DNA from: a virus
Direction: 5' to 3' (one strand)
IMG/VR virus record: IMGVR_UViG_3300045997_000112
Coordinates: 41,426 to 105,425 of that record
DNA length: 64,000 bases
In this document: positions 1 through 64,000 of the stretch, piece after piece
Layout of the letters: each line of letters opens with the position of its first letter
Numbering within the stretch: position 1 is the stretch's first letter
The notes under the pieces: model-generated
Told to the model about the DNA's origin: nothing
The model's database searches: none
The model's input: the letters and a program-made list of their open reading frames with translations, nothing else
Translations under genes and position numbers: made by a program

Positions 1-530
1 AACTGCTGGGGCTGGAGCCCCAACGTTGCCTTGTCGATGGTGGGGAACCCGGTGGAGATGCCGAGGAGCCCGCCCGGCCGGTTCTTCCGGGCCGTGTAGT
101 CGTGGTACCGCTGCACCGGGTCATCGGTCAGGTTGACGATGCCGGTGTCGGTCATCGCGCCCTCGATCTCGGCGATCGTCTTCATCGCCACCGCGAGGAT
201 GTCGTCGGCCGACCCGCGCTTCTCCAGCAGGGCCACCTGCCGCTCCACCATCTGGAACACGAGGTGGTGCCGGTGGTCGGCAAGGCTGGCATCGACAACC
301 GCGTCGAGCCCGTCCTCAACCTTGACCAGCCGCAAGCTGGGGAACTCCCGCTTGATCATGGCGCCCGTGGGCACCTCGCTGTACTTGGCGTTGTGGCGAC
401 AGATGAAGTCGAAGGCGTCCCGGTAGTCCGGGCTCTTGAAGGTGTCCTTGGTGACGCCCCGGCGCAGGGGCGTGTCCACATCCCGCTCGAGAGCGATCCT
501 GCTGATGAGCCGTGCATCTTGATCCGACAT
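1..530 (-). CDS. dnaB: DnaB-like replicative helicase (N-terminal part; runs off window edge)
   Basis: Not in ORF track (no stop in window). Read from ATG at 530: MSDQDARLISRIALERD...LLGISTGFPTIDKATLGLQPQQ. The G(I/V)xTGFxxIDxxTxGLxP segment precedes Walker A in DnaB helicases. Confidence 0.85.
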   Translation of the reverse strand, partial: MSDQDARLISRIALERDVDTPLRRGVTKDTFKSPDYRDAFDFICRHNAKYSEVPTGAMIKREFPSLRLVKVEDGLDAVVDASLADHRHHLVFQMVERQVALLEKRGSADDILAVAMKTIAEIEGAMTDTGIVNLTDDPVQRYHDYTARKNRPGGLLGISTGFPTIDKATLGLQPQQ

Positions 531-541
531 TGATCCAACTC

Positions 542-925
542 CTAGACGTTGAGCGACCGGGCCCCGAACGCTAACGGACGGCGGCGGTCGATGATGTGCC
601 GCACGTCGCTCTGCATGGCCACGTAGTGCATGGCCTGGGTCAGGTCCGCGAACACCAACCACTCATTGAACGGGTGGCTGTAGTGGTCGATGAACTTGAT
701 GACCTCCTCTGGGGTTACCGGGTCGTCCTCGTAGCCGAAGAGGACCATCTTCAAGCCTCGATCCCGCAGGTCGTTCACCAGGGCGATGTCCACGTCGTGG
801 AGCATCATCTGGTGGCCAACCTTGGGGAAGAACCTGCCGGTGACGGCGGGCATCGCATCCACCACGGTGCTGGAGTGAACCAGGCACCGTGGTGGAGCGG
901 TGTCGTCGAGGTCGTTGTGCAGCAT
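542..925 (-). CDS. hypothetical protein in replication module
   Basis: MLHNDLDDTAPPRCLVH...; ATG overlaps upstream stop (TGATG); phage-like codon bias. Confidence 0.75.
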   Translation of the reverse strand: MLHNDLDDTAPPRCLVHSSTVVDAMPAVTGRFFPKVGHQMMLHDVDIALVNDLRDRGLKMVLFGYEDDPVTPEEVIKFIDHYSHPFNEWLVFADLTQAMHYVAMQSDVRHIIDRRRPLAFGARSLNV

Positions 926-1509
926 CAGTTGACGAAGATCGGGGCAATGCCCAGACCAAGGTCGATCCCATCCCACATCGAGTAGTTGCTCGGGGTGGCA
1001 TACAGGACCGTGATGTTCCGGTGAGCACGCTTGGACCGAGAGTCGATGAGTGCCCGCTGGGACGTGTAGTACATCCGGTCAGCGGGATCCCGAACCTCGG
1101 TGACCAGCACGCGAGCGGACTCCAACCACCGACGGACCTCCCGGTCATCCCGGTTGTCCCGACGATGAGCCGTCACCTGATTGGGATCGGTCCACGCGAG
1201 GTACTCCTCGAAGCCGTACCGGGCGTAGACGCCCTCCTGCCGGACGAGGTCCAGAACGAGGGCGGCCGCGTACTCGTCCGCGTGGTCGCCCACGAGGAAG
1301 ATGCTCTCGGTGAGGGACTGCGCGTTGGTGAGGACCCAGTCGTAGAGCTCGTCGGTCAGGTACTCAGAGCTGACCCACCGGCCCTTGTCCTTCCGGAGCA
1401 GGGTTGCGTTTCGGAGAGCGACCGGGATCTCCCAGTACCCCTGCCGACGGGCACCGGCCCAGTCCGACTCGGTACGGGCGAGCATGTCGCCGCGTGTCAT
1501 GGTGCTCAT
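925..1509 (-). CDS. degenerate DnaC/IstB-like helicase loader
   Basis: SIFLVG...AAALVLDL, Walker-B-like ARVLVTEV, ALIDSR...ITVLYAT; adjacent to dnaB; no GKT/S Walker A. Confidence 0.5.
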   Translation of the reverse strand: MSTMTRGDMLARTESDWAGARRQGYWEIPVALRNATLLRKDKGRWVSSEYLTDELYDWVLTNAQSLTESIFLVGDHADEYAAALVLDLVRQEGVYARYGFEEYLAWTDPNQVTAHRRDNRDDREVRRWLESARVLVTEVRDPADRMYYTSQRALIDSRSKRAHRNITVLYATPSNYSMWDGIDLGLGIAPIFVN

Positions 1510-2132
1510 GCTCCCTCCTCAATCCGCTGTCGTGTTCGATCTACGAGCAACTTTAGGGTAGCGATTGAGTTCTGTCCATGATTGGCCAAGTACAACTCTT
1601 CGTCTTCCAGAGCGACATCCAACCGGGTCTGGTACTCCTCCAACCTCAAACGGAGATCCTCCACGGATGGACCCTGGTTGGGGACAGGCTTCTCGGAACT
1701 CACCGAAGCGACATGCTGCTTCTCCTGCTGACGGACGTAGTCGTTCTCATCCTTGGGCCGAGTGTCCCGAACCTTCCAGAGCCACTTCTTCCACGCGGGG
1801 TACTCCCGCTTGCCGCGATCCAAGTGCTGAGCGTAGAAATCGTCGATCGCCCGCACCATGTGCTGGACGGTGACGCCCTCATTCCTCAGCTTGCCGAGGA
1901 TCTTCACCAGCGTGACGTAGTTTCCCAGTTCATCCGGGCTGTGCTGCGGGTACTTGTTCCGATACCGCTCGCGGAACTCGTCCACCGCGTCCTTGACCGA
2001 CCACTCTGACACAGGAAGGTCCTTCCGCCGAATGGACCTGAGACGTTTCCCGGCCGCCGCATCCCTGTCTCTGGCATAGCGCGGATCGTCCTTGAACACG
2101 TCGTAGGGCACTTCCCCTCCATCTCCTGACAC
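1506..2132 (-). CDS. hypothetical protein, possible replication initiator C-terminal-like
   Basis: 208 aa charged helical ORF upstream of DnaC/DnaB-like genes; alternative GTG start at 2111 with GGAGG RBS. Confidence 0.7.
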   Translation of the reverse strand: MSGDGGEVPYDVFKDDPRYARDRDAAAGKRLRSIRRKDLPVSEWSVKDAVDEFRERYRNKYPQHSPDELGNYVTLVKILGKLRNEGVTVQHMVRAIDDFYAQHLDRGKREYPAWKKWLWKVRDTRPKDENDYVRQQEKQHVASVSSEKPVPNQGPSVEDLRLRLEEYQTRLDVALEDEELYLANHGQNSIATLKLLVDRTRQRIEEGA

Positions 2133-2139
2133 CTCTGGC

Positions 2140-2305
2140 CAAACACCGGGGGTGAGCTTCGCTCACCCCGCTTCGCCTACCCGCTCCCGAAGGATCCGAC
2201 CAAGTTCACCACCCCCGTAACCGAAGGGCCCTCCGCCGCAGGCGGGGGCAGGTTTTCTTGGCGGGAGAGGACATAGCTCTCCTGCCGCGAGGTGGTGAAC
2301 TGAAT
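2140..2305. other. highly structured intergenic element (candidate replication origin or structured RNA)
   Basis: Hairpin GGGGTGAGC-TTC-GCTCACCCC; outer stem AGTTCACCACC/GGTGGTGAACT (2203-2301) enclosing further stems; two GCGAAGC and two C(TTCG)G loops on minus strand. Confidence 0.5.
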
Positions 2306-2380
2306 CAGCGCCGTGCCAGCGTCCCGGGTTAGTTGACTCGCAGCGCCTTAGCTGGCCCAGGGGGAACACGGAGGCATCCT

Positions 2381-4913: not shown

Positions 4914-6074
4914 TCAGACCGCGAGCCAGTTCACCTCGACCGTCTCAGCCTGGGATCCGATGTTCTCCAGGACCAGCACGAACCCCTGCGAGGTCACCTT
5001 GCGGACCCCGGCGAGCACCGGACGGGAGTTGACCTCCTGGGTGGAACCCGGCGTGGTGAGCGTGTAGGTGAGGGACACGGACACCGAGGCACCCACCACA
5101 CCGCCGTAGTTGGCCTCGTTCGCGGTGTCGTTGGGACCGAAGGCGATGGCGTTGTAGGTCCCGGCTGCGAACCCGGCCGCCCACTCGAGTGGAAGATCCA
5201 CGGTATGCGTGGTGCCCGACGCGAAGTTCTTCACCACGTTGAGCTTGGGCGTGGCTGCCGGGTTGAACGACCCGGGAAGCCCTGCCGCGACGTTGTTGTA
5301 CGGCCGGAAGGTGATGGAGTCCAGCGCATGCCCGGCCGCCGAGCCGATCTTGAACGTGACCTGGAGCTTGGTGGGCTGGGCTCCCGCAGGCAGGGCGAAG
5401 CCCCCGGGAAGGAGCACGAGGCCCCTCTGGTTGCCGTTGGACGTGGAGAACTGGCCGACGAGGAAGGTGGTCTTGTCGCCCTGCCAGGTGGTCGAGGCGC
5501 TCTCCCCGTAGGGCGAGTTGCCCGAGTAGCACCGGAAGGACCCCGCCGTGGCCGTCTTCACGCTGGAGGTGGTGCCCCCAGCGGACTGACCCACAGTCTT
5601 CTGCACCGGGGAGACCAGCACCTTGGGCGGCGTGGTGAACGATCCGGCTGGGAAGGAGACGTCGATGCCCTGAGGGCCAAGGTTGGGCGCCAGGAGGCGC
5701 TCCGCCAGTACCCCGGAGACGATCGATGCATCCTTGCCCGGGGCTCCGTTGGTGCCATCCCGACCTCGAGGGATCTCGAAGGTGAGCTGCCCCGTGGCTC
5801 CGTCCCAGAGGGCCTTCGCCGGGGAGGTGGCCTCAACACTGGTGGCCGACGCCCCATTGATGGGAGTGGCGGCCGCCTTCTCCAGCGCGTCGATGCGGAG
5901 ACGCAGGGAGCCCGTCTTCTCGCCCGCGATCTTGATGCCGATGTCCCGCTGTACAGCCAGGACCCAGTCGATCGCGTTCTGGTGCAGCGTGGTGTGCTGA
6001 GACGCGTCCAGCGTGGCGCTGGGAAGGAGTGCTGCCCCAGTCGGATCCAGGGCGTCGGGGAACCGGCTGGCCAT
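4914..6074 (-). CDS. tail fibre / receptor-binding protein with interrupted H-type-lectin-like domain
   Basis: N-terminal attachment-like motif (FPDALD...H...VQRDIG), short collagen, VSFPAGSFTTPPKVLVS...VTSQGF...VNWLAV; end of baseplate operon. Confidence 0.7.
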   Translation of the reverse strand: MASRFPDALDPTGAALLPSATLDASQHTTLHQNAIDWVLAVQRDIGIKIAGEKTGSLRLRIDALEKAAATPINGASATSVEATSPAKALWDGATGQLTFEIPRGRDGTNGAPGKDASIVSGVLAERLLAPNLGPQGIDVSFPAGSFTTPPKVLVSPVQKTVGQSAGGTTSSVKTATAGSFRCYSGNSPYGESASTTWQGDKTTFLVGQFSTSNGNQRGLVLLPGGFALPAGAQPTKLQVTFKIGSAAGHALDSITFRPYNNVAAGLPGSFNPAATPKLNVVKNFASGTTHTVDLPLEWAAGFAAGTYNAIAFGPNDTANEANYGGVVGASVSVSLTYTLTTPGSTQEVNSRPVLAGVRKVTSQGFVLVLENIGSQAETVEVNWLAV

Positions 6075-14773: not shown

Positions 14774-14774
14774 G

Positions 14775-23751: not shown

Positions 23752-24935
23752 AGCCCGGGCCCTGCGGGCTGGGGAACCCACGAGGCACCGGTACTGATCG
23801 GCGTCACACCCGGCTCGATGGCCAGGCTGGGCTCGTCGTAGTCGGTCATGCGCGGGACGGTCACATCCTTGGGCACGTACAGCCACCCGCCCACCAAGGT
23901 TGTGATCACCCGCTTCTCGAAGTCATCCCCGAAGTCAGAGCTGAGTCCTCCGCCATCGGGCGGGAGCTCCATCTGCAGGTCCCAGACCATGTTCTCCGGG
24001 AACTGCTCGGACCGGTTGGCCGGGAGGGTGAGCACGACGTTGTGCTCGTCCACCCGGGTGACGCCGAACTCAGCCACGATGACGCTCGAGCCCCGGTAGC
24101 GCTTGATGTGCGCGCGCAGCCGGGCCTTCTCGGGGATGTAGGTCTCGATCTTGATGGGCTCCACCACGGTGTCGCCCCGCAGCATGGTGATGTCGTGGTT
24201 GGGGATCCCGTCGTCCACGATCTTGCCGCCGTACGTCGGGATGGGCAGCCGCACCCGCTGAGGCATCGAACGGTCGTCGATCTCCTGCGGCCGGAAGACG
24301 GGCACGTACCGGTTGGTGCGCTTGGAGATCCGCCGGAAGGTGAAGACCTCCAGCGCGTACATCCCAACATTGAGGTTGGAGGAGAGGTCCCGGTAGCGGG
24401 CCTCCAGCAGCTGGAGCAGCTCGTACAGCTGGCGGTACCGCTCGGACCGAGGGATGTTGACGCCGTCGGGAGCGTTGATGTCGATGTCGTATGAGGCATC
24501 GGTGAGCAGCACGTACAGGCACTGGATGGCGCAGAGGATCTGCAGCGGGAGGTCCTCGAGCGGCTCAAGGTTGTACAGGGTGAGCGTCCGACCCAAAACG
24601 TCCGTCCGGTTGGCCGTGTGCATCTCGAACGAGTCCTGGCAGATCTTCTCCAGCTCACTGTCGGTGAAGAACCGGGTGTGCACTCCAGCAGCGGCGATCG
24701 TCACGCCCTTCTTCGGCGGGTGATCAAAGATCAGGGTTCCGGTGTGCTCCTCGACTGCCACATCCTCGGAGACTTCAACCCCATCCAGGTGCACTGCCAC
24801 CGAGTTGGCGCGGACGGGCGAGTAGTCCAGGGTGTACCGGTTGGTCCCGCCAACGGCAACGATCGTCTGCAGGAACGACTTCTCCGGATCGGAGATCTGG
24901 CGCCGCACGGCGAACAGCAGGTCTGACATCTCCAT
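23748..24935 (-). CDS. head-tail adaptor / neck protein
   Basis: VRRQISDP...FFTDSELE pattern of head-to-tail adaptors; C-terminal RGDT...VWDLQ domain. Confidence 0.7.
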   Translation of the reverse strand: MEMSDLLFAVRRQISDPEKSFLQTIVAVGGTNRYTLDYSPVRANSVAVHLDGVEVSEDVAVEEHTGTLIFDHPPKKGVTIAAAGVHTRFFTDSELEKICQDSFEMHTANRTDVLGRTLTLYNLEPLEDLPLQILCAIQCLYVLLTDASYDIDINAPDGVNIPRSERYRQLYELLQLLEARYRDLSSNLNVGMYALEVFTFRRISKRTNRYVPVFRPQEIDDRSMPQRVRLPIPTYGGKIVDDGIPNHDITMLRGDTVVEPIKIETYIPEKARLRAHIKRYRGSSVIVAEFGVTRVDEHNVVLTLPANRSEQFPENMVWDLQMELPPDGGGLSSDFGDDFEKRVITTLVGGWLYVPKDVTVPRMTDYDEPSLAIEPGVTPISTGASWVPQPAGPGL

Positions 24936-28374: not shown

Positions 28375-28445
28375 TAGTCATCCTTTGTCCGTTGGGTTTC
28401 TCCAAGGGAGACTATATGACCCAACATTGGGGATCGCCATACAGG

Positions 28446-30188
28446 TCAGGACGTGGCGCCGCGATCGTCCTGCCCCGGGGACTGCCGTGCAGGGAGCTTG
28501 GTTCCGTACGCCTTGGTGACCAGCGTGTTCCGAATGTTGGCCTCGGCCTCGAGATTGATCATGGCGGCCTGATCCTGGACGCCGTACGCCGGGTTGCCCA
28601 CCATGCCGTCGCCGAGCACGTCGCCGTCTCCGGTCATCGCCATCGTCGGGTCCAATGGCATAGCGGGGCCGCCTTCGAGCCCCGGCATCATCCCGGTGAT
28701 GTCCATGACCTCCTTCTGGATCTGCGTCTTGAGCAGGTCCAGGGCACCGTCGGCCAGGGCGTCGTCCATCATCTCCTTGCGGATCTCGTTCAGCTTCTGC
28801 TCGGGGAACTCCTCACCCAATGTTCGGAGCGCCCCCTCACGAGACTCGAGCCCCATCTGCATCTTCATCTGGATCTCGTTGAGGAGCACGAGCTTGTCCA
28901 GGGGCAGCGGCGGCGGGAAGTGCACGGTGGACTGGTAGGAGATCATGTCCGCCGGGTCGAGCTTCGGAACCTGGCCCTCCTCCAGTGGGAGGTCCCGAGT
29001 CGGATCCCAGACCAGGATCTCGGGCTCCTTCACCACCAGGGTGAGCAGGATCATCTCGTTGATGCGCTGCAGGCCCTCGGCGTACTGGGCGATCTTCTGC
29101 TGCCAGCGGTTCATCAATGGCTGGAACTGGATGCTCAGCGCCACGCCGGAGGTGTTGGAGATGGGCTGTGCCTGACCGAGTGCGGTCTCAGGGACGCCCA
29201 CCATCTCGTGCATGGAGCGCTTGATCATCTCCAGGTACTTCAGCGCGCCCTCGAGACCGGGCCCACCACCCTCAAGGTTGAAGACCTGGGCCTCCTTGGG
29301 GAGACCACCCCAGACCTTCTTGGCGCCCTTCTCCAGCTGGGACGCCTTGGCGCCGACGATGACCGTGATCGGCGCCGCGTGGTAGTTCACGATGTCGGCC
29401 ACGTCGGTGGCGACCTCGTTGTAGTGCATGTTCAGGTTGATGATGTCCTGGCAGTCGCTCAGACCCCACGGGCTGTTGGGCACCGGAATGTTGGGGATGT
29501 GCACCACCGGGATCCGACCCAAAGGATTCGGGCGGCTGTCGATCAGCTCGTCGTTGACGTACTCCTCGATCGCGTTCTCGGTGAGGATCTCGACGTAGGT
29601 GTAGACCGACCGGGTGCCCTGGGGGCTGGTGCCGTAGAAGCGGTACTTGATCTTGAACCGGATCAGCCGCGACCGATCGTGCGGGTGGTACTCCGGGAAG
29701 CAGTAGGCCGCGTTCAGCGGGAGCAGGCGCACCCGGCCGGGGTGGGTCATCCCGACCGAGTCCTCCCAGGCTTCCTCGTAGGCGATCTTCACGAAGCAGT
29801 CGCCCGAGACGGCACCCGAGGTGCCCATCTCGAAGAGCACCTTCATCTTGTCGTTGTCGGTCTCCCACACGCGCTTGAGCGCGTCGGGCACGATCGCGTC
29901 GGTCTCCTTGGGGCTGGAGAACTGCACGCCCCTGCCGAAGGTGAACCGGGTGATGAAGTCCGTGAAGGCCCGGTAGTAGTTGTAGGTGTTCTGACTCTCG
30001 CCGGTCTCCCGCCGGTACCCGAAGTGGTGGCCGAGGTACATCGACCAGTTCAGGCTGTACCGGTTGAGCCGGGGCCCGTGGATCTCGAACTCCTCATCGG
30101 CCAGCTCGACGAGCCCCAATGGTGAGATGGAGACCGTCAGGTCCTGAGAACCGGCCCTGAATGATGGAGACGCGAAGTCAATGGACAT
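28446..30188 (-). CDS. portal protein (SPP1 gp6-like)
   Basis: PNPLGRIPVVHIPN...WGLSD, NTSGVALSIQFQPL; position after terminase. Confidence 0.93.
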   Translation of the reverse strand: MSIDFASPSFRAGSQDLTVSISPLGLVELADEEFEIHGPRLNRYSLNWSMYLGHHFGYRRETGESQNTYNYYRAFTDFITRFTFGRGVQFSSPKETDAIVPDALKRVWETDNDKMKVLFEMGTSGAVSGDCFVKIAYEEAWEDSVGMTHPGRVRLLPLNAAYCFPEYHPHDRSRLIRFKIKYRFYGTSPQGTRSVYTYVEILTENAIEEYVNDELIDSRPNPLGRIPVVHIPNIPVPNSPWGLSDCQDIINLNMHYNEVATDVADIVNYHAAPITVIVGAKASQLEKGAKKVWGGLPKEAQVFNLEGGGPGLEGALKYLEMIKRSMHEMVGVPETALGQAQPISNTSGVALSIQFQPLMNRWQQKIAQYAEGLQRINEMILLTLVVKEPEILVWDPTRDLPLEEGQVPKLDPADMISYQSTVHFPPPLPLDKLVLLNEIQMKMQMGLESREGALRTLGEEFPEQKLNEIRKEMMDDALADGALDLLKTQIQKEVMDITGMMPGLEGGPAMPLDPTMAMTGDGDVLGDGMVGNPAYGVQDQAAMINLEAEANIRNTLVTKAYGTKLPARQSPGQDDRGATS

Positions 30189-31043: not shown

Positions 31044-31192
31044 CCCTTAGCCCCAACCTTGGCAGCAGCGATGCACTCCTCGCAGAGCCGACCCGCGTGT
31101 TTCTGGTCGATATCGACGTACCCGCACGCGGGCCACTTGCCGCACGACCTGCAGAACGCCGACCTGGATGGTTGGTTCACCACTGCCTGCAT
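31040..31192 (-). CDS. small zinc-finger protein (50 aa)
   Basis: Below ORF-track cutoff; MQAVVNQPSRSAFCRSCGK...LCEECIAAAK; GAGGAGAG RBS. Confidence 0.65.
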   Translation of the reverse strand: MQAVVNQPSRSAFCRSCGKWPACGYVDIDQKHAGRLCEECIAAAKVGAKG

Positions 31193-31201: not shown

Positions 31202-33538
31202 TCAGCTGAACCATGGGGCGACGGATACGTCCACATGGGGGATGTGCATCTCGGCGGTGCAGTAGGCCGCGATGGCCAGACTGTCCACGAAGTCGTCGTG
31301 GGCCCCGGTCTCATTGGGGGCCTCCACGGTGAAGTACTGCCCGGAGAACTTCTTCTCCGCGTCGAGCATCTGCTGCATGAAGCGCTGGTACACCTTCAGC
31401 CGCCGGGTCTTCGCGTGCGCGGGCCATCCGATAGAGCGTCGCTGGATGAGGGAGGTGAGGTGCTTCCAGCGCTTGGCCTGCTCCGCCTGGTTGGAGCCGA
31501 AGGACAGCACCTCCGAGCGGGGGAGCAGGAGCTTGAGGCGCTGGGCCACCGCATCGCCGACACCCGTGGAGTCCACGCCCACGGCAAGCACGTCGTAGGG
31601 CGCGAGGAAGTTCACGATCTGGAAGTACTGCTCCTCCCAGTCGTCACCCTGGATCTCGAGCCAGTTCAGGACCCGGTGGTCGAAGAAGCCGAACTCATCC
31701 GGGGCGTCCCAGTTCACCCACAGGACGGTCACCACTGTTGAGTCAACCTTGCGCGCGGGGTCCACGCCCACCACGACCGGGCTCTGGTTCCAACCCCGGA
31801 CGATCTGCTGGCTGGTGTCGCCCAGCGACTCGAAGGCCGACTGGCTGATGAACATGCCCCGGTCGAGCATCCACTTGCAGTTGTGAGAGGCGAGACCCTC
31901 GGCTATGAAGGTCTTGGTGGTGGTCTCCAGGGCGACCAGCTCGATCTCGCCCACGAACTCCTTCGACACGACGAGTGGGTGCTCAAAGCGCTGCGACACG
32001 TGGTCGTGCCTGCCGATGGACCCTAGGAGGTCGATGTTCAACTTGTCCAGCAGACGCTGCGGCCTGATCTGGCCGAGAAAGCGGAGAGCACCGGCGCGAC
32101 CGCCTGCGACAAACACGTTGTGGACGTCACCGTTGGTGCCGTTCGGCTTCACGCGGTCCCACGTCGGCACACCCTTGGCGGCGAGGTGCTCGCGCACATC
32201 GGCCAGCATGAGGTTGTCCTTCTGGGAGAACCCGATGACGGTCTGCCCCTTGCGCTGGAGGAAGTGGCCCTCCCCGTCGAACGCCGCCGCGAGGTACCCG
32301 GTCTCGTAGTCGTGGTCGTGTCCCCACACATCGACCAACTTGAAGATACGGTCGGTGGTGAGCAGGTCCTCGGTGGTCTTCCACTCGGTGCGCCTCCCAG
32401 CGGTGGAGACCAACCAGAGGTGTCCGCTGGATGACGTGACCTCGGTTCCGTCGTCCAACGTCACCTGGTAACTTGGCCGGATCACGCGAGCGGTGCTCGT
32501 CACGACCGACTCCCGAAACTGCCGATGGGCCCCCTTCTCGGGGCGCTCTTCGTCGAACCCAACGAGCCTGTCACCCACGACGAGGTCACCAGCAGGTACG
32601 TATCGTAGGTCAGCGGTCAGGACTCGGGTCTCAGCCACTACGCAATTGTAGGACATCTGGAACTCGTCCGAGTCCTCGCCCAGCTGCAGCATCTCCTTGC
32701 GGATGTACTTCTTGTAGTTGGGGTTGACCTTCACCACGTCCCGCCAGTTCCACTCGAAGTGGTTCCTGCGGCTGGCCTTGGCCACGGCGGTGCGCTTGTT
32801 GATCTGGATGCTCTTGTAGAAGTTGTTCTTCTTGGTGGTTGGCGTCCCGGTCTTCACCATGGTGGCGTTGTAGTAAGCGCCCATCGGGGAGATCGACTTG
32901 GAGACGATCAGGTCGTCGGCGTCCTGACACTCGTCGATGATGATCAGGTGGAACGACTTCGACTCAATCTTGGCGCGCGGGTTGGCGGTCATCATCATGA
33001 GCACCGAGCCGGACCTCTTGAGCTGCACGCCCCGGGTGACGCCCGGGTTCTTGGCCGTCACGTCGTCGATCTCCGGGTCCCCGAGAATCTCGAGGGCCCG
33101 CTCCGAGCTGAGCCGGGTGACCGTGCGGCCGAACAGCGTCTCGGCCTGGGCCTCGATCGGGGCGAACATGCCGACCCAAAAGCCAGTGGCGAACTTGCCG
33201 AGGAGGTCCGGGTAGATCTTGGCCAGCCTCGGGAGGAGCACCATGAGCGCAGCGACCACGTTGGCCAGGATCTCGCTCTTGCCCGACTGCCGGGCCGCCA
33301 GAGCGGTGAGGAGGCTCCCATCATTGATGACGACCGAGCGGATGATGCGCCGGGCGAACGGGACCTGGTAGGCGTGCAGCTGGTGCCCGGCCAGCAGGTA
33401 GGTGAAGGCGAGGATCTTGTCGATGAGGTCTTCGACGAACTCTTCGGAGAACTCGTCCAGATCCTCTTCGGAGGAGAATCCCTCACCCTCCTGGATGGTG
33501 GCCTCTTGGTCCGCGTCAAGAACGAGGGTCTCATCCAC
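31202..33538 (-). CDS. terL: terminase large subunit (intein-containing)
   Basis: Walker A AARQSGKSE, Walker B IIIDECQD, TGTP, nuclease VGVDPAR and HDDFVDSLA. Confidence 0.95.
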   Translation of the reverse strand: MDETLVLDADQEATIQEGEGFSSEEDLDEFSEEFVEDLIDKILAFTYLLAGHQLHAYQVPFARRIIRSVVINDGSLLTALAARQSGKSEILANVVAALMVLLPRLAKIYPDLLGKFATGFWVGMFAPIEAQAETLFGRTVTRLSSERALEILGDPEIDDVTAKNPGVTRGVQLKRSGSVLMMMTANPRAKIESKSFHLIIIDECQDADDLIVSKSISPMGAYYNATMVKTGTPTTKKNNFYKSIQINKRTAVAKASRRNHFEWNWRDVVKVNPNYKKYIRKEMLQLGEDSDEFQMSYNCVVAETRVLTADLRYVPAGDLVVGDRLVGFDEERPEKGAHRQFRESVVTSTARVIRPSYQVTLDDGTEVTSSSGHLWLVSTAGRRTEWKTTEDLLTTDRIFKLVDVWGHDHDYETGYLAAAFDGEGHFLQRKGQTVIGFSQKDNLMLADVREHLAAKGVPTWDRVKPNGTNGDVHNVFVAGGRAGALRFLGQIRPQRLLDKLNIDLLGSIGRHDHVSQRFEHPLVVSKEFVGEIELVALETTTKTFIAEGLASHNCKWMLDRGMFISQSAFESLGDTSQQIVRGWNQSPVVVGVDPARKVDSTVVTVLWVNWDAPDEFGFFDHRVLNWLEIQGDDWEEQYFQIVNFLAPYDVLAVGVDSTGVGDAVAQRLKLLLPRSEVLSFGSNQAEQAKRWKHLTSLIQRRSIGWPAHAKTRRLKVYQRFMQQMLDAEKKFSGQYFTVEAPNETGAHDDFVDSLAIAAYCTAEMHIPHVDVSVAPWFS
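31880..32644 (-). mobile_element. intein (255 aa) with LAGLIDADG-type endonuclease domain in terL
   Basis: N-junction SYN|CVVAETRVLTAD, block B SSGHLWL, GYLAAAFDGEG, C-junction TFIAEGLASHN|C. Confidence 0.92.
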
Positions 33539-42970: not shown

Positions 42971-43091
42971 CGAGGTCACCCTCCACGTCGGACTCGTGGA
43001 ACTCGTCCACGACGTCGTCACCCTCAGTGGTCAGGGGATCGAAGTCGTCCCAGAGGTCGTCCTTGACCTCCACCACGGTCTCGTCACTCAC
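42963..43091 (-). CDS. small acidic peptide
   Basis: MSDETVVEVKDDLWDDFD...; overlaps flanking genes. Confidence 0.55.
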   Translation of the reverse strand: MSDETVVEVKDDLWDDFDPLTTEGDDVVDEFHESDVEGDLDE

Positions 43092-43303
43092 GGAACCTCC
43101 TCGATTCGGTCGGCCGACAGGAACAATGGTGAGTAGCTCTCCAACTCGGCATCCCAGAACTGGACGAACTGGTCGCCCAGAGGAACCCATAGGTCGTCCG
43201 GGCGGTCCGGGCTCTTGGACTGGATCACGTCCACCGTCATCGTGGAGTTCGACTCAGCCCACTGGACGACGACCCGGGTGCCGGGAGAGAACGGTGATGC
43301 CAT
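43088..43303 (-). CDS. hypothetical protein
   Basis: GGAGG RBS; 71 aa. Confidence 0.65.
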   Translation of the reverse strand: MASPFSPGTRVVVQWAESNSTMTVDVIQSKSPDRPDDLWVPLGDQFVQFWDAELESYSPLFLSADRIEEVP

Positions 43304-43313
43304 CAGGGCCTCC

Positions 43314-45753: not shown

Positions 45754-45754
45754 G

Positions 45755-46114
45755 TCAGACCTGCGGTGCCGCCGGTCCGGAGGGCTCCTCCACCGGGGCG
45801 GGTGGTGCGGCAGGAGCCGGGTTGGTGTCCATCGGGACCACGGTGGGGTTGCCCATGATCCCCTGCACCGCCGACAGGATCATCCCGTCGGTGATCACTG
45901 CGGGCTCCCATCCCGGGCGGTCCATCAGCGCGGCGACCGCCGATGCGTACGCCTCACCCCATCCCGGCTGTCCGGCACACTCCCACTGCACCCGATCGGC
46001 GAGCACCAGCGCGGGGATCCCCATCCGGGAGTACCCCTCCTGCGCCATGCACGCCGCGATCCTCGATCGCAGATCCATGTCAACCGCCGCAGCGGCGATC
46101 TCGTTGTAACCCAT
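45755..46114 (-). CDS. fibre-associated protein (possible chaperone)
   Basis: [13 protein letters not shown]...[10 protein letters not shown]...[12 protein letters not shown]; AGGAGG RBS. Confidence 0.75.
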
Positions 46115-46122
46115 CGCTCCTC

Positions 46123-49004: not shown

Positions 49005-51448
49005 CAGGTCACCTGTGGGACCCAGATCATCCCCGACTTGGGGGAGGCCGGTGCGGTTGGGGACACGACAGCCGCCGCCGCGTGGGAGTCCACGTACGCC
49101 TTGGTCGCGGCGTGCTTGGCGGCAGTGGGCTCGTTGACGAGGATCAGGTCCGTCCCGTTGAGCAGGCTGATGTGCCCGGTGCTCCGGTCGATCTGGAGGA
49201 CATCGACTTCCTTGCCGTTCGTGTAGATGCGGAAGCGCCGATTGGCGCCCGCACCGGTAGTGCCGAGCACGAAGTCCTGATTGCCGGTGTCCTTGCTGCG
49301 AAACTCGAACTGGGCAAGATCACCACCGTCGCCGCGCTCGATGGCGAAGAAGGCGTTGCCGTCGGAGTTGACCGTGATGCCGTGAGCGGCCACCGTCAAC
49401 TCGCCGGACAGTTCCCCACCGGTCAGTGGCAGGAAGCCGCCAGTACTGCCTGCCGCCGACGGGTTCACCCAGATCTTGATGTCTGGGCTCGTCGGCTCCG
49501 CGTCCTGGATCGCCACCTCTGCTGGGGTGAAGATCAGGCTGTCAGTACCCAGCTTCGACTGGTTCCCCGCATCAGTGGACACGGCCGTCGGGCCAGCGGG
49601 ACCCGTGTCACCGGTATCACCCTTCGGCCCGGTGGTGCCCTGCGGGCCCTGAGCCCCATCATTGCCCTGAGGTCCAGCCGGTCCCACTGCACCTGGGGCG
49701 CCAGCAGGACCAACGAGAGCACTCGTGTCGCCCCACACGGGCTGACCGTTGTCGAGGGTGAGCACAGAACCGTCGGGGACACCGCCGCTGAAGGTGACAT
49801 TGATCAGCGAGCTCGCAGGCGGGATCACCGTTGGCTTGGGCCGCGACGGGTCAAGGTAACTCGTCGTGGTCAGCGAGAAGTAGTCGCCAGACCCACCGCC
49901 ACTGATCCACGACACAGTGGCAGTAGCCACCTCGTAGGTGTCCATGCCGATGTAGTACGTCCACAGATGCTCGGTGCCGTCATCGGGGAACAGCGACTGC
50001 AACTCTGCTCGCGTCCAGATCCGACCATTCAGATCCTCCGAATGGAACGCGATGACACCGACCTGCGTACCTCCGCCGTGCAGTTCCAGCGTCGCCTCCC
50101 CGGGCTGACTGGGATTCTGGTTGGCGCTGATCCGCCACGTCCCCCCAAGCGGGCCGGGGATATCAGGCAGCCCGCTCGATGGTGCGTCCCACACGCTCGC
50201 GCCCGAGAGCGTCCACCACTGGTTGCTCACACCGTCAGCGGGCGGAAACTCCTGACCGTAAGAGCCATCAGCGATGCAGCGGTACATGCTCCGGGTGTCC
50301 CAGTCAACGACGTAATCCCCGACGGAGTAGCTGTTGGTGCTTTCCCAAATGCCGGGCATAGCCGCACTGAAGATTCCGTTGAGAGCCCTAGCGTTCTCAG
50401 CGGCGGTCTCCTCCAGGATGCTTACCCACTCGGCAAGCGAGTGGCCGGACAACTCGAACCAGATCGCACCGTAATCCGTGCCGGGCTCGGTGTCAGCGTT
50501 GTCGGACGAGAGGGCGAAGTAGTAGTCGCCGTTGTGCGTGACGATGGTGCCCCGGTCCACACCCGAGCCACTGACCCACGGGTCGATGGAGGTCTGGTCG
50601 AAGCCCATGCCGACGGGCATCCCGGAGACAGGCGGGTCGATCGGACCCCATGCGCCCTCTGCCGTCGTCCCGAGCACCTTGCCGGGCGGGGTGTCAGCCG
50701 GGGCGGTCACGTCGGTCAGGATGTCCAGCGGACCAGCGGGACCTGCAGGACCAGTGGCGCCATCAGCTCCAGGAACACCTTGGATGCCCTGAAGGCCCGT
50801 GGGGCCCTGTTCGCCCGTGTCACCCTTGGGACCTTGGGCCCCATCATTGCCAGGAGGGCCTTGGATCCCGGGGTTGCCCTGATCGCCCTTGTCGCCCTTG
50901 GGTCCCTGGGCACCCGTAGCGCCGTCGGCTCCGGCAGCTCCGGTATCGCCCTTGGGTCCCTGGGGACCGACTCCACCCGTGGCTCCCGATGGACCGACCT
51001 CGCCCTGGATCCCTTGGGCACCTGTGTCGCCCTTGTCGCCCTTCGGCCCGGCAGGGCCCTGAGCGCCAACCTCACCTTGGATTCCCTGGATCCCCGGGTC
51101 ACCCTTGTCGCCCTTGGGGCCTTGGAGTCCGGTGTTGCCCGTATCGCCCTTCGGACCGACAGGGCCCTGGCTTCCCTGAGGACCCTGGAAGTGGCCGATC
51201 GCCTGCCACTGGCCGTCGGTGTTCCAGATGTGCACATCACCAGTGGCCGTCACCAGATGGGCATCACCCGGCTGGTTCCCCGTGGTCGGAAGATCACCCG
51301 CTGTGGCGACCGCGCTGAGGATGCGGATGCCCTGACCCTGGATCCCTTGGGGCCCCTGAGGACCCGTGCCTCCAGGGGGGCCCTGGGGACCGGTGTCTCC
51401 GGTGTCTCCCTTGGGGCCCTTGATGTTGAGCTTCTGCTCCCATGCCAT
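49004..51448 (-). CDS. long collagen-like fibre protein
   Basis: MAWEQKLNIKGPKG, about 50-triplet collagen tract, HAATKAYVD, C-term PTAPASPKSGMIWV. Confidence 0.85.
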   Translation of the reverse strand: MAWEQKLNIKGPKGDTGDTGPQGPPGGTGPQGPQGIQGQGIRILSAVATAGDLPTTGNQPGDAHLVTATGDVHIWNTDGQWQAIGHFQGPQGSQGPVGPKGDTGNTGLQGPKGDKGDPGIQGIQGEVGAQGPAGPKGDKGDTGAQGIQGEVGPSGATGGVGPQGPKGDTGAAGADGATGAQGPKGDKGDQGNPGIQGPPGNDGAQGPKGDTGEQGPTGLQGIQGVPGADGATGPAGPAGPLDILTDVTAPADTPPGKVLGTTAEGAWGPIDPPVSGMPVGMGFDQTSIDPWVSGSGVDRGTIVTHNGDYYFALSSDNADTEPGTDYGAIWFELSGHSLAEWVSILEETAAENARALNGIFSAAMPGIWESTNSYSVGDYVVDWDTRSMYRCIADGSYGQEFPPADGVSNQWWTLSGASVWDAPSSGLPDIPGPLGGTWRISANQNPSQPGEATLELHGGGTQVGVIAFHSEDLNGRIWTRAELQSLFPDDGTEHLWTYYIGMDTYEVATATVSWISGGGSGDYFSLTTTSYLDPSRPKPTVIPPASSLINVTFSGGVPDGSVLTLDNGQPVWGDTSALVGPAGAPGAVGPAGPQGNDGAQGPQGTTGPKGDTGDTGPAGPTAVSTDAGNQSKLGTDSLIFTPAEVAIQDAEPTSPDIKIWVNPSAAGSTGGFLPLTGGELSGELTVAAHGITVNSDGNAFFAIERGDGGDLAQFEFRSKDTGNQDFVLGTTGAGANRRFRIYTNGKEVDVLQIDRSTGHISLLNGTDLILVNEPTAAKHAATKAYVDSHAAAAVVSPTAPASPKSGMIWVPQVT

Positions 51449-51457
51449 CGGGTGTCC

Positions 51458-52171
51458 TTACGAGACGAGGTTGTAGACGTCGCCAGTGGCCGTGTCCAGG
51501 TAGAGGTCGCCGACAACCGCGTTGGGAACATTGGTGGGTATCCCGGCCCCGATGAACCACCCGTTGCCTCGAGCTCCCGGAGCTCCCTGCGGACCGACGT
51601 TGCCCTGAGGACCGGCCAACGACAGACCAGAGCCCCACGCCCCAGATGTTCCGCCCGTCCGGGGTCCGTACAGCGTCTTGCCCGACAGGTCCAGGTAGTA
51701 GTCACCGTCCCTGCCGATATCGGCAGCGGGGACACCTGCACCCGAGAGGATCGTGGACCCGGCGTCACCCTGCGGTCCCTGGATCTGTCCCAGGTTCTGG
51801 TGCCCTGCAGCGCCAGCGGCCGCAACATCCGTGGAGATCCACATATCGCCGGTGCTGGTGACGAAGTAGATGTTCCCCGGCACGGAGTCGGCGGGAAGGT
51901 CCTCAACATTGGTGACCGACCCTTCGATCGAAAGACCGGGGCCCCGATCACCGGTCTCGCCCTTCAGGGAGATTCCGGAGAGTGGCCATGCGGTTGCGCC
52001 TCGAGGCCCGAACAGCACCTTGGTGGTCTCGGAGAAGAAGTAGTCGCCCTCTGCCCCCAGATCATGCGGGGGGAGGAGGGCCACATCGGTGTAGATCTGG
52101 GAACCGGGAGCTCCCGCTTGTCCAGGATCGCCCTGTGGGCCCTTGATGTTTCCTGCCTTGGCCCACGCCAT
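51458..52171 (-). CDS. collagen/knob fibre segment protein
   Basis: MAWAKAGNIKGPQG; repeated GxGxP..G..GDYY knobs; ends GDLYLDTATGDVYNLVS. Confidence 0.85.
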   Translation of the reverse strand: MAWAKAGNIKGPQGDPGQAGAPGSQIYTDVALLPPHDLGAEGDYFFSETTKVLFGPRGATAWPLSGISLKGETGDRGPGLSIEGSVTNVEDLPADSVPGNIYFVTSTGDMWISTDVAAAGAAGHQNLGQIQGPQGDAGSTILSGAGVPAADIGRDGDYYLDLSGKTLYGPRTGGTSGAWGSGLSLAGPQGNVGPQGAPGARGNGWFIGAGIPTNVPNAVVGDLYLDTATGDVYNLVS

Positions 52172-52172
52172 G

Positions 52173-53210
52173 TCAGTTCCCTCCGGTCAGCGAGATGATC
52201 TCGCGGGTGTACACGTCCCAGGTGGTCGTATCCAGGTAGGCGTCATTCTGATCCCCAATGGTGGGAGCAGGTGCGCCCCGACCGAAGATCCACTCGGATC
52301 CATCAACTCCGTCGACTCCCGGATCACCGGTGTCGCCCTTCTCTCCCCGAGGTCCTTGCTCCCCTTGTGGCCCGACGGGGCCTTGGGGTCCCCGGATGGG
52401 GCCGACGTTCTGCCACGCAGATCCGTCCCACACCACGCCATCGCCAATGGCGGCCGGATGATCCGGGCCCACTGGAGCGCCTGAGGTGTCGGTGAGGATC
52501 CACATGTCCCCGACAGAGCCCTGGAGCGTAGTGATGTAGGACCACGTCCCGGATCCCCGGATGGTGACCCCGGACCCGTCCGCACCGGGCGTGCCCTGGG
52601 GTCCGGTGGGGCCGACTCTCCCATCAAACCCACGGGGGCCCTGCGGTCCCGTGTCTCCCTTGGGCCCGGGAACACCCTGCTGGCCCTGGGGTCCCTCGGG
52701 ACCCACAAGGTTGGAGAGCATGTTCCACGCCGAACCGTCCGAGATGGCCAGCTCACCGGAGTCCGTCACCAGATAGGCGTCTCCGGCCGGGACGCCAGCA
52801 TTGGGCCACCCCGGGAGCATGGACTCGGACCGCACAACATTGGTGATGTGGATCCCCTGGCCCTGAACGCCTGGCGCGACCACGCCCTCGAGGGGAACCC
52901 ACCGACTTCCATCCCATACGACAACGGCATCGAACTTCGGAGCCGGGGACAGCAACGCCTTGTTGACGATCGCCATCACGCCTGCGGGGAGTCCACCCGC
53001 AGCTGCCTCGGCCTCCAGGCGCTCGTACTCCGGTCGGGTGCTGATCACTCGGACGTAGGGCCCGTACACCGCTGCGGCGTCCGGAACCAGCGCCATCAGG
53101 TCGAAGAGGACCCGGCGCAGGTCCACCACATCCACGTAGCCCTGATCCGGATCTCCCGGAAGAGGACCCAAGGGGATGAGTGCGACCTCAATCTTCCGAG
53201 GATCGATCAT
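52173..53210 (-). CDS. collagen/knob fibre protein with N-terminal docking domain
   Basis: [12 protein letters not shown] motif; knobs; ends [14 protein letters not shown]. Confidence 0.85.
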
Positions 53211-54914: not shown

Positions 54915-55250
54915 TCAGTCCTTCCCGGCTTCGTGCTTGTTCCGCTTGGCCACATTCTTGCCATGGCTCATCGCCTGAAGGTTGGACTTCGAGTTGTTGT
55001 CCTTGTTGTTGTCCTTGTGGTCCACGTCGGTGTCCTTGTCGAGCTTGCCGTGGTCCTTCTCGTAGTCCGCCCGGGCGGAGTCCGTGGTCGTCGTCTTCTG
55101 AGTCTTCTTGTGGTACGTGACGTCCTGCTCGCGGCCGCCATTCTTGTCGGAGCCCTTGCAGCGGTAGACGATGATCTCGTCGGTCTCCCGGATCTTGCGG
55201 CAATGGCCGTGCGAGCCCTTGTGCCCCTGACGCGCCGCAACCTCACCCAT
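54915..55250 (-). CDS. small HNH-type protein
   Basis: DVDHKDNNKDNNSKSNLQAMSHGKN. Confidence 0.7.
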   Translation of the reverse strand: MGEVAARQGHKGSHGHCRKIRETDEIIVYRCKGSDKNGGREQDVTYHKKTQKTTTTDSARADYEKDHGKLDKDTDVDHKDNNKDNNSKSNLQAMSHGKNVAKRNKHEAGKD

Positions 55251-55289
55251 GAGAGCGAGTCTAGAGAACGGCGCCCAACCTTGGGGTGG

Positions 55290-63078: not shown

Positions 63079-63309
63079 ATGAGGACGATGCTGCACAACC
63101 TCACCCATCGGCATGACCTGCTGAGCTCGCCCGATCGGGGCTGCTTCCAGTTCTGCACCAGCAAGCTGACGGGGAACACGTACATCTCGTACGCCCCGTA
63201 TGACGGGAGCAACTACCACCCGGTTCCGAAGCACCTGCTCCCCGAGATCATGAAGCTGAATCCCCTGACCCCAGAGGCCGTCATGGCCGTGATCCGGAGG
63301 ACACCATGA
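63079..63309 (+). CDS. hypothetical protein
   Basis: AAGGAG RBS; MRTMLHNLTHRHDLL. Confidence 0.7.
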   Translation: MRTMLHNLTHRHDLLSSPDRGCFQFCTSKLTGNTYISYAPYDGSNYHPVPKHLLPEIMKLNPLTPEAVMAVIRRTP

Positions 63310-63449
63310 ACGAGAAGCTCACCTGGGTCAGCATCATGCTCGCCACGGTCATCGTGATGCTGTGCCTGGGCCTCTACTTCATCACTCAGAACCAGACGGT
63401 CGAGGAGTGCATGCGGAAGGGCTACACCTGGGAGTACTGCACCCGCTGA
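63306..63449 (+). CDS. small membrane protein (47 aa)
   Basis: Below track cutoff; GGAGGA RBS; MNEKLTWVSIMLATVIVMLCLGLYFI..ECMRKGYTWEYCTR. Confidence 0.75.
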   Translation: MNEKLTWVSIMLATVIVMLCLGLYFITQNQTVEECMRKGYTWEYCTR

Positions 63450-63513
63450 TCCGGTCACCTGCCTTGGTGGAGGGCACGTCCCTCCACCTTGGGAGCCGAC
63501 CGGCTCGCCAACC
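63450..63513 (+). repeat. 64-nt structured intergenic repeat, copy A
   Basis: TCCGGTCACCTGCCTT + hairpin GGTGGAGGG-CACGT-CCCTCCACC + TTGGGAGCCGACCGGCTCGCCAACC. Confidence 0.8.
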
Positions 63514-63552
63514 GACTCCGATTGGGGTCACAACACAGAAAGGCCATCACCA

Positions 63553-63732
63553 ATGGCAAGTTCAAGCAGCAAGGGCGGCAACAGCCGTCCGTCCAGCGGC
63601 AAGGGTTCCGCGTCCTTCGGTCGTGGGGCCAGCCCGGCCCGCCTGAGCCAGCGCTCCGGCACCACCATGGGGGGCTGGACCAAGGTCAGCAAGGGTAGCG
63701 GCGGCTTCACCATGAAGAAGTCCGGCAAGTAG
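63553..63732 (+). CDS. small basic Gly/Ser/Lys-rich protein (59 aa)
   Basis: GAAAGG RBS; MASSSSKGGNSRPSSGKG...GGWTKVSKGSGGFTMKKSGK. Confidence 0.7.
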   Translation: MASSSSKGGNSRPSSGKGSASFGRGASPARLSQRSGTTMGGWTKVSKGSGGFTMKKSGK

Positions 63733-63796
63733 TCCGGCCGCCCGCCTTCGCACAGGGCATGTCCCTGTGCGTTGGGGGCCGACCGGCTCGCCAACC
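63733..63796 (+). repeat. 64-nt structured intergenic repeat, copy B
   Basis: TCCGGCCGCCCGCCTT + hairpin CGCACAGGG-CATGT-CCCTGTGCG + TTGGGGGCCGACCGGCTCGCCAACC. Confidence 0.8.
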
Positions 63797-63849
63797 CAAA
63801 AGTCGCCGCTGCCAATGGGGTAGCGGCATTGTCACAACGAAGGAGCACC

Positions 63850-64000
63850 ATGTACGTCAAGACCAGCAATGTCATCGAGGCCATCGAGGAGCGCCTCAAG
63901 ACCCGTGAGTCCAAGATCACGGAGCTCAACCTGCTCAAGGGCAAGGTTGCCGATCTCAGCGAGAAGGTCACGTCCAAGACCACTGAGGCGCTGGCCCGTG
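63850..64000 (+). CDS. hypothetical coiled-coil protein (partial, runs off window)
   Basis: AAGGAG RBS; MYVKTSNVIEAIEERLKTRESKITELNLLK. Confidence 0.75.
   Translation, partial: MYVKTSNVIEAIEERLKTRESKITELNLLKGKVADLSEKVTSKTTEALAR

Follow-up and report, generated by a model that had tools for sequence, protein, structure and literature searches.

A lineage-private, evenly spread 8-bp word, CAWYMWTG, in the genome of a predicted lytic actinobacterial phage

Why would a phage genome carry one short dyad dozens of times, mostly inside genes and at the cost of rare codons? The question is raised by a 64,000-bp stretch of DNA (here called the window), bases 41426-105425 of the 105,425-bp virus record IMGVR_UViG_3300045997_000112, which CheckV rates as complete and which has a G+C content of 65%. 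A first-pass annotation, made from the letters of the window alone, had noticed about 50 copies of the dyad CAANNTTG, against about 5 expected from base composition, and had taken them for a genome-wide binding site of a dimeric protein or a modification target. We examined this dyad in the window and across the whole record (the genome below), redefined it as the word CAWYMWTG (CAWKRWTG on the other strand), and compared its distribution with that in related phages. The word is lineage-private and under selection on the DNA itself.

Enrichment and form of the word

The count by eye had been accurate. Exactly 50 copies of CAANNTTG occur in the window, every coordinate given for a copy matched, and the genome holds 82, evenly spread. 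The estimate of about 5 was also sound, as 100 dinucleotide-preserving shuffles of the window yielded 4.9 ± 2.7 copies, with a largest value of 12. Null models that respect coding raise the expectation without reaching the observed numbers. Shuffling synonymous codons gave 13.1 ± 2.5 copies in the window and 23.7 ± 2.6 in the genome, shuffling codon order in the genome gave 20.9, and Markov models of orders 1-4 predicted 9-22. A synonymous shuffle of the genome in which all codon-junction dinucleotides were kept, equivalent to a dicodon shuffle, gave 34.6 ± 3.5 (largest 44). Codon-preserving, dicodon-type, and Markov nulls had been named beforehand as decisive, and the enrichment survives every one of them.

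The signal is specific to one arrangement. When CAA-N(0-12)-TTG and TTG-N(0-12)-CAA were compared across spacers, the spacer of 2 alone was enriched (z 18), and when all 64 XYZ-NN-rc(XYZ) dyads (rc, reverse complement) were ranked, the runner-up reached z 3.3. The effect on coding is sizeable, with 8-15% of the genome's GTT, ATT, CTT, and AAT codons sitting within the word. Streptomyces phage BRock, put through the identical analysis, showed nothing comparable (top z ~5; CAWYMWTG 67 vs 59), and the method therefore does not yield such signals by itself.

The form of the word was then defined from an unbiased ranking of 8-mers against the synonymous shuffle, which placed a single family on top: CAACCTTG, CAACATTG, CAACAATG, CATCATTG, CATCAATG, and CAAGAATG. 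By position-by-position tables, CAWNNWTG totals 186 in the genome against 75 expected, and the excess is confined to the centres CA/TG, CC/GG, and TC/GA, that is, Y-M on one strand. The centres CG (15 vs 12.6) and GC (6 vs 5.2), which give true palindromes, are flat, so the perfect palindrome is not what is selected. The 16 words of CAWYMWTG with their reverse complements account for 160 copies in the genome (51.8 expected) and 95 in the window (26.1 ± 3.5 under the synonymous shuffle), while the remaining CAWNNWTG words are flat at 26 vs 23.2 in the genome. Selection favours forms such as CAACATTG and CAACCTTG, whereas those whose centre is palindromic, CAACGTTG among them, show no enrichment; CAAGCTTG groups with CAACGTTG as an unselected word. 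The site is thus a pseudo-palindrome with an obligatorily asymmetric centre and arms CAW/WTG, each of 3 bp with one degenerate position.

These results retain only part of the earlier description of the element as a palindrome: the dyad is enriched, but true palindromes are flat and the enriched set is CAWYMWTG. A symmetric dimer as its reader is doubtful, since the palindromic CG and GC centres show no enrichment. Near variants of the dyad had also been called common, which is so for CAACAATG (14 vs 1.9) and GAATGTTG (11 vs 1.4) but not clearly for CAACAGTG (5 vs 2.8). An extended palindrome of 10-12 bp was considered and rejected; CCAANNTTGG is enriched (17 vs 5.2), yet its flank frequencies are those of null sites. 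A Y/R tendency in the flanks is equally present around sites that arise in shuffled genomes and the flanks add almost no information, so that the information, about 12 bits, lies within the 8-mer. On both strands the word ends in a 3′ G.

The sites in the window are as follows, in window positions.

21..63949, no strand: 50 exact CAANNTTG sites, 47 of them in the CAWYMWTG class
21 and 8689 (CAACGTTG) and 17284 (CAACTTTG): the three CAANNTTG sites outside the class
317..63949, no strand: the full CAWYMWTG/CAWKRWTG set of 95 sites, with the starts given in the next four lines
317, 817, 1577, 1748, 4047, 4293, 4587, 4839, 5678, 5729, 5855, 6519, 6544, 7133, 7489, 8085, 8401, 8833, 8890, 9478, 10131, 10935, 11932, 12667
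13302, 13474, 13633, 14180, 14924, 16051, 16481, 17167, 17296, 17921, 18290, 19264, 19870, 21086, 21970, 22399, 23415, 23864, 23895, 24365, 24566, 24979, 25128, 26770
28422, 29112, 29273, 31054, 31744, 32965, 33319, 33322, 33596, 34002, 36161, 36416, 36663, 37772, 38009, 38687, 39204, 39396, 39683, 40619, 40982, 41906, 43874, 46233
47887, 48647, 48651, 49657, 50842, 51904, 52706, 52835, 53291, 53998, 54577, 54953, 55139, 55276, 56288, 57023, 57494, 57924, 58233, 59334, 61659, 62812, 63942

Placement, orientation, and spacing

Most of the word lies in genes. With our own set of 143 gene calls, which covers 92% of the genome, 138 of the 160 sites (86%) are intragenic, and several seemingly intergenic ones fall in coding sequence that the gene caller missed. 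Among the 68 coding CAANNTTG sites, 51 read xxC-AAN-NTT-Gxx. Every frame is nevertheless enriched, at 4 vs 0.4, 13 vs 1.4, and 51 vs 8.5 for frames 0, 1, and 2 (6-10 fold each), and non-coding DNA holds 14 copies against about 1 (~14 fold). Because all frames and non-coding DNA are enriched alike, the bias toward one frame reflects opportunity only. The first-pass annotation was right that the sites force rare AT-ending codons in several frames; relatives use GC-ending codons. Selection acts on the DNA and not on codons or peptides, as every frame and non-coding DNA is enriched and rare synonymous codons are used. A codon or peptide artefact is ruled out by this same pattern together with the three coding-aware shuffles.

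We also note that the sole tRNA gene of the genome is a tRNA-Asn(GTT), at window positions 26371-26445 on the minus strand. AAC and AAT are the Asn codons of the commonest in-frame form of the word (xxC-AAY-NTT-G), a match that may be coincidence.

Orientation carries no bias. Counted on the coding strand, there are 53 YM-centred sites where 11.7 are expected (4.5-fold) and 85 KR-centred sites where 18.4 are expected (4.6-fold), and this equal enrichment excludes an RNA-level, promoter-like, or stoperator-like polarity. The sites had been described as sitting at promoters, with four places cited. A sigma-70-type scan of positions 22000-34500, which hold three of those four, found one site where 1.2 were expected; with matches at chance and 138 of 160 sites inside genes, the description is not supported. 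Two intergenic sites bear on the point:

31054..31061, no strand: intergenic site 11 bp upstream of a sigma-70-like CTGACA-N17-CAGAAT (31043 to 31015, minus strand), the only match in 22000-34500
55276..55283, no strand: intergenic site with extended dyad flanks, cccCAAGGTTGgg on the minus strand, 26 bp upstream of the start of gene 54915-55250 (minus strand)

A stoperator-like role had been proposed as well, in which a phage repressor would use the sites as operators to silence the genome in lysogeny or early infection. Such a role would fit the many dispersed copies, whose density resembles that of the stoperators of Cluster A phages, and the few copies that lie near promoter-like sequences (31054, and a variant near 23023). 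Set against this are the equal use of both orientations, the intragenic location of 86% of sites, and the chance level of promoter-like sites. Moreover, tyrosine and serine integrase families (PF00589 and PF00239) had no match in six frames, where control genomes were positive, and no repressor-like domain was found among the ~80 proteins scanned. We regard stoperator-type operators as very improbable, and that reading as largely refuted. The lack of an integrase is also why we take the phage to be a lytic myovirus.

Coverage of the chromosome is more even than chance, which bears out the earlier impression of a genome-wide mark. Across the 160 sites, the coefficient of variation of gaps is 0.80, where random placement gives 0.99 ± 0.08 (P 0.0015), and the index of dispersion for 1-kb intervals is 0.62 (P 0.001). 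Empty 1-kb intervals number 12 where 22.8 are expected, and no 2-kb interval is empty where 2.5 are expected, with a mean density of about one copy per 660 bp across the chromosome. No gene or region is significantly poor in sites, and the idea of motif-poor imported genes was dropped. Cooperative site pairs were likewise rejected, since gaps shorter than 100 bp are not in excess but rather in deficit (13 vs 22 by chance). The even spacing and the few short gaps suggest that the benefit needs a nearby site and that clustering is not favoured.

Such a density raises the possibility of a replication or recombination signal placed about once per Okazaki-fragment length, at which a DnaG-type primase would start or recombination proteins would be loaded or resolve their substrates. 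Lagging-strand priming operates on a scale that fits one copy per 0.66-1.3 kb with even coverage, and both orientations would suit recombination-driven replication. The machinery is phage-encoded: the left arm of the genome, outside the window, carries DnaB, a DnaG-type primase, an SNF2 helicase, PolA, RecA, and a RuvC-like protein, along with a Cas4-like nuclease, a ligase, DenV, and a sugar-polymer cluster. However, relatives with orthologous replication genes lack the word, it is tied to no replication protein, and known primases read 3-5 nt, not 8. We consider a signal of this kind quite unlikely.

Relatives, turnover, and genomic setting

To place the word in context, we compared it with related phages. 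The terminase shares 46% identity with its counterpart in the Streptomyces phage BRock group, and hundreds of related ~100-kb contigs occur in freshwater and soil metagenomes. Two of these contigs are binned in metagenome-assembled genomes (MAGs), one of which is labelled Ca. Nanopelagicaceae. Gene products in the window include a tail sheath, portal, large terminase, collagen-like fibres, and a capsid protein. From this content we predict a lytic myovirus of a high-GC actinobacterium.

The word is restricted to one recent lineage. In ~2.3 Mb of related contigs it is not enriched (596 vs 907 expected under an order-2 Markov model), and 14 relatives above 60% G+C hold 13 copies against 24 expected. 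Ordered by portal identity, CAWYMWTG occurs at 1.49 per kb in identical contigs, 1.21 at 95%, 0.36 at 83%, and 0 at 77%; beyond 77%, other high-GC relatives have 0-0.18 per kb. At orthologous codons for the same residues, relatives use CTG/CTC, ATC, GTG/GTC, and AAC where this phage uses CTT, ATT, GTT, and AAT. Since both C and G are found among the third bases that were replaced, the sites cannot be put down to a single type of mutation. The following sites illustrate the comparison, where L001 is a relative with 84% DNA identity over 4.1 kb and L012, L021, L025, and L026 are further relatives.

24365..24372, minus strand: rare-codon site, here CTC AAT GTT GGG (LNVG); AAC GTC or AAC GTG in relatives, with residues unchanged
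28422..28429, no strand: intergenic site CAACATTG between the portal gene and the next gene; L001 has CAATGTTG there
29273..29289, no strand: turnover in the portal gene; CAAGGTTG at 29273 is CAAGGTTC in L001, and 9 bp on L001 has CAACCTTG where this phage has AGACCTGG
31744..31751, minus strand: site in the large terminase gene, here CGC AAG GTT GAC (RKVD); AAG GTG GAC in L025
32965..32972, minus strand: site in the large terminase gene, here GCC AAG ATT GAG (AKIE); AAG ATC GAG in L012, L021, and L026, with AKIE retained

In L001, the site at 28422 is retained but as its reverse complement, through two substitutions; the site at 29273 is lost, with a new one 9 bp away; and a third site is present in L001 only. 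This pattern indicates turnover under selection for local presence. Conservation at synonymous positions in relatives had been put forward as a check. The word itself is limited to this phage and a 95%-identical sibling, and individual sites turn over locally between the two, with density kept. For a larger conservation sample, a metagenome scan for close relatives with the sheath protein returned nothing, and one with the portal returned only fragments of 1-3 kb.

These comparisons also bear on whether the word is a functionless by-product, arising from codon-pair bias or from context-dependent mutation or repair. Repair of the very-short-patch type is able to inflate particular words, and a single frame accounts for 51 of the 68 coding CAANNTTG sites. 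Yet the frame bias is one of opportunity, the enrichment survives a synonymous shuffle that preserves dinucleotides, the site-creating substitutions are of several types, equally GC-rich relatives lack the word, and even spacing with local turnover indicates selection. A by-product is, in our judgment, extremely unlikely.

We next considered whether other lineages carry words of their own. The idea that every lineage has its own 3-NN-3 dyad was rejected: of the candidates from a first scan, most vanished once an empirical null for spacing was applied, and the top words in relatives are mostly collagen-like coding repeats with a 9-bp period. A sub-lineage of the same phage group at 45% G+C (L221, L246, L255, L262, and ~8 further loci) does carry a dispersed word, CTTCTTTA(G), at ~1.4 per kb. 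It is present at 31 vs 8.2 ± 1.4 under the synonymous shuffle (~4-fold), in genes, in several frames, and in both orientations. AAGTWACTT is weaker and found in a smaller set of loci (L264, L268, L269, and L228). A C-W-W-C-W-W-T-R layout is common to the forms CTT-CTT-TA and CAW-CAW-TG, a resemblance that could be meaningful or fortuitous.

The sister clade also informs the possibility that a host factor reads the word, with the phage having converged on a host signal: either a Chi-like signal that tames RecBCD/AdnAB or the site of a host nucleoid protein. Chi is short, species-specific, dispersed in genes, and local in its action, which fits even coverage and lineage specificity. Linear DNA ends need protection, and the phage has RecA, a RuvC-like protein, and a Cas4-like nuclease. 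The sister-clade word CTTCTTTAG, however, is not enriched in any of 41 candidate-host-family genomes, nor in the MAG into which a relative's contig is binned (53 vs 43 for a control), and its density in the phage exceeds that in candidate hosts 35-100 times. In that branch this argues for a phage-private mark, and host mimicry was rejected for CTTCTTTAG on the basis of those 41 genomes. For CAWYMWTG itself, complementary 3-bp arms would be unexpected of a single-strand signal, there is no orientation skew, and an AT-rich 8-mer would be rare by composition in a high-GC host. We think it unlikely that a host factor is the reader.

Several further features of the genome were observed. The large terminase gene (window 31202-33538, minus strand) encodes 778 aa, ~270 aa more than in many relatives; a LAGLIDADG domain lies at residues 410-479, between the ATPase and nuclease parts, and residues 285-555 alone match Cluster C mycobacteriophage terminases. 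The protein probably holds an intein with a homing endonuclease. The 7-mer most over-represented under a maximal-order Markov model is ACCCAAA (17 vs 3.9), present as gCCAACCCAAAAGTCG upstream of plus-strand genes and a candidate early promoter or terminator element. The fibre block at 36816-53210 is dominated by collagen-like repeats, which in relatives give strongly over-represented 9-bp-periodic words. Two proteins with carbohydrate-binding modules are probable receptor-binding proteins. These features are located as follows.

Genome 2018-2258 and 105158-105425 (window 63733-64000), plus strand: ACCCAAA early regions
Window 43542-43885, minus strand: collagen-like G-X-Y coding repeat missed by the gene caller, which probably extends the fibre gene 43886-44509
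Window 46123-47889, minus strand: 588-aa protein with an F5/8 type C (discoidin) domain at residues 46-122
Window 4914-6074, minus strand: 386-aa protein with an H-type lectin domain at its C-terminus

Possible readers and known systems

Collectively, ~110 extra copies have been fixed against codon preference over a short evolutionary distance and are evenly kept. This argues for a strong additive benefit per site, and hence for a sequence-reading activity along the whole chromosome. The explanation we favour, at a probability of roughly 0.55, is that CAWYMWTG is a lineage-private recognition or landing word on double-stranded phage DNA, acting chromosome-wide and independently of orientation, with a benefit that depends on coverage. 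Selection would keep about one copy per 660 bp, spread evenly over the chromosome, for a sequence-specific protein, most likely phage-encoded, that finds or acts on phage DNA in either orientation. The word would then serve as a chromosome-wide mark meaning "this is phage DNA" rather than as a promoter or operator element. Its reader could act in protection, in the condensation or handling of replicating DNA, or in loading or halting a translocating enzyme. We know of no described phage system that explains such a word in a lytic phage. If the reader were identified, it would probably uncover a general and as yet undescribed mechanism by which phages mark or handle their DNA, with consequences for self/non-self discrimination, anti-defence, and recoded-phage design.

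Several observations weigh against this explanation. Scans of ~80 of the 143 proteins against Pfam, PHROGs, and NCBIfam found no helix-turn-helix, ribbon-helix-helix, or other sequence-specific DNA-binding domain, in keeping with the earlier statement that no cognate regulator is recognisable, though a repressor of unlisted fold is possible. By a phyletic-pattern test, no gene in the conserved neighbourhood tracks presence of the word in relatives. An 8-bp site of ~12 bits with W, Y, and M degeneracy, whose true palindromes are not favoured, resembles an enzyme recognition sequence rather than a typical dimeric operator. Nor is the system constant across the group, since about half of the related loci are without any private word. 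Finally, the rarity of the word in the real host is deduced from composition only.

We then asked whether the word could be a methylation or restriction site. The DNA methyltransferase motifs [DNS]PP[YFW] and PCQ occur in no credible gene, and the methyltransferase families PF01555, PF02086, and PF00145 have no match in six frames, though a host enzyme is possible. A SprT-like zinc protease (PF10263) is likewise without a match in six frames of the genome. Against a synonymous-shuffle null, the genome strongly avoids several restriction-type words: CCGCGG (3/84, observed/expected), GCCGGC (1/92), TCGCGA (1/31), AGGCCT (0/27), CACGTG (2/30), TGCGCA (0/17), and TTAA (0/30). GATC is enriched (885 vs 752), as are CGATCG, GGATCC, and TGGCCA. 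The near-total avoidance of palindromes indicates that the DNA is exposed to restriction and is not globally modified, and avoidance of the 6-bp palindromes points to an actinomycete host. CAWYMWTG, enriched 3-7 fold, behaves in the opposite way to an avoided restriction target.

A candidate modification module was found outside the window:

Genome 13905-16641 (=L029:13905-16641), minus strand: conserved three-gene module, core to the whole phage group, encoding a 477-aa TGT/DpdA-like protein, a 133-aa protein, and a 283-aa Pol-beta-type protein

The 477-aa protein (genome 13905-15338, minus strand) matches PHROG 887, "queuine tRNA-ribosyltransferase," over its C-terminal third only (E 5e-25). 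In an AlphaFold model built with nine homologues, its N-terminal 273 residues form a (beta/alpha) TIM barrel (pLDDT ~88), and the best structural matches of the barrel are TGT (Z 15.9, root-mean-square deviation 3.5 Å over 260 residues) and the DNA preQ0 insertase DpdA (7ui4, Z 15.5). The family has an invariant four-Cys cluster in its C-terminal domain and conserved T-E-x-D (D94) and F-D-T-V (~D189) motifs; the Asp aligned with the TGT nucleophile is replaced in three of nine members. At the sequence level, no TGT-like relationship was significant in PDB searches with phmmer/hmmsearch, in six-frame searches with Pfam TGT, or by hhalign against six real TGTs (probability 0.2%). The 283-aa neighbour carries a G-S-x13-D-x-D Pol-beta nucleotidyltransferase signature. 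No folE, queC, queD, or queE was seen among Pfam matches of proteins from the left arm or from genes next to the TGT-like one, though the host could supply the base. The gene is core to the group, with more than 546 relatives, and is found in cultured Streptomyces phages, as BRock gp36 and as "dpdA-like" in GiJojo, with depositor labels of TGT or dpdA-like. It does not predict the word: BRock has the gene and lacks the word, and for that reason was rejected as a cultured analogue. The three genes may form a nucleic-acid modification module.

On this basis the word could be the target of a sparse DNA base modification, laid down by the Pol-beta-type, small, and TGT/DpdA-fold proteins, with marks every 1-2 kb labelling self. 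In its fullest form, the phage would have recoded its own genes to receive a covalent "self" mark per 1-2 kb through a very divergent TGT/DpdA-fold base-exchange or other base-modifying module. That would be sparse-mark self-recognition in a lytic virus, with a target that shifts between sister lineages. The PHROG match, the barrel fold, the four-Cys cluster, the labels of cultured homologues, the signature in the neighbour, and a weak atlas pointer from the 477-aa protein to viral DpdA clusters are consistent with it, as are the G at the 3′ end of both strands and a sharp W/Y/M degeneracy typical of enzyme sites. Salmonella DpdA acts within CAGCTG, itself a CA...TG palindrome, and bacterial Dpd marks the chromosome about once per 1000 nt (PMC10164549). 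On the other side, the motifs of phage DpdA are of 2-3 nt and saturating (GA, GGC, or GGT in phages iggy and CAjan; PMC10484667), and no folE or queC/D/E was seen. The avoidance of CCGCGG, GCCGGC, and AGGCCT speaks against broad protection of the DNA, the nucleophile-aligned Asp is not constant, and most relatives with the core gene, BRock included, have no private word. Given the non-significant sequence link, the core gene without the word in BRock, and the restriction avoidance, modification is a minority hypothesis; we hold both its plain and its fullest form to be rather unlikely, and return to a coverage-dependent recognition word as the preferred explanation.

How does such a word compare with known systems? 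Chi (RecBCD/AddAB) and the DNA uptake and uptake signal sequences (DUS/USS) are host-genome words read by cellular machinery, and Chi is asymmetric and strand-skewed. Like CAWYMWTG, these are words of about 8 nt found in genes in any frame at a codon cost, specific to a species or lineage, and local in their action, so that coverage matters. They differ in being enriched in cellular genomes, whereas here the word belongs to a lytic phage, has complementary arms, and shows no skew. With DpdA, the common ground is a TGT/DpdA-fold protein in a phage and, in bacteria, a mark once per ~10^3 nt in a CA...TG palindrome. The motifs of phage DpdA, however, are not enriched by selection, while here preQ0 genes were not found and the gene does not predict the word. 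CAWYMWTG is also distinct in sequence from TTT[C/G]AAA, CGTGTAAACG, TACTG-N3-CAGTA, and GCTGGCCAGC.

Two phage systems come nearer. Cluster A stoperators, bound by L5 gp71, are 13-bp asymmetric sites that lie mostly in short intergenic gaps and in one orientation, in temperate phages with a known repressor (PMC4351075 and partly established knowledge). They share with CAWYMWTG the character of short, phage-private words in dozens of copies at a similar order of density, bound in the stoperator case by a phage protein. Single orientation, intergenic location, and a temperate life with a repressor are features that we do not see here. The best parallel in the literature is a repeat found in Cluster O mycobacteriophages, a 17-bp dyad, TGTTCGG-NNN-CCGAACA, in ~34 copies and with its function unexplained (Cresawn et al. 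2015, PMC4351075). That repeat has 7-bp invariant arms, where CAWYMWTG has 3-bp arms, a 2-bp centre, and W/Y/M degeneracy. It has ~34 copies rather than 160, and one third to two thirds of them are in genes rather than 86%. It is denser at one genome end, whereas CAWYMWTG is evenly spaced, disfavours palindromic centres, and belongs to a single recent lineage. In both cases, though, an actinophage that is not obviously temperate carries a dyad in more than 30 copies genome-wide, with most sites away from promoters and an asymmetric centre that keeps no consistent orientation to transcription.

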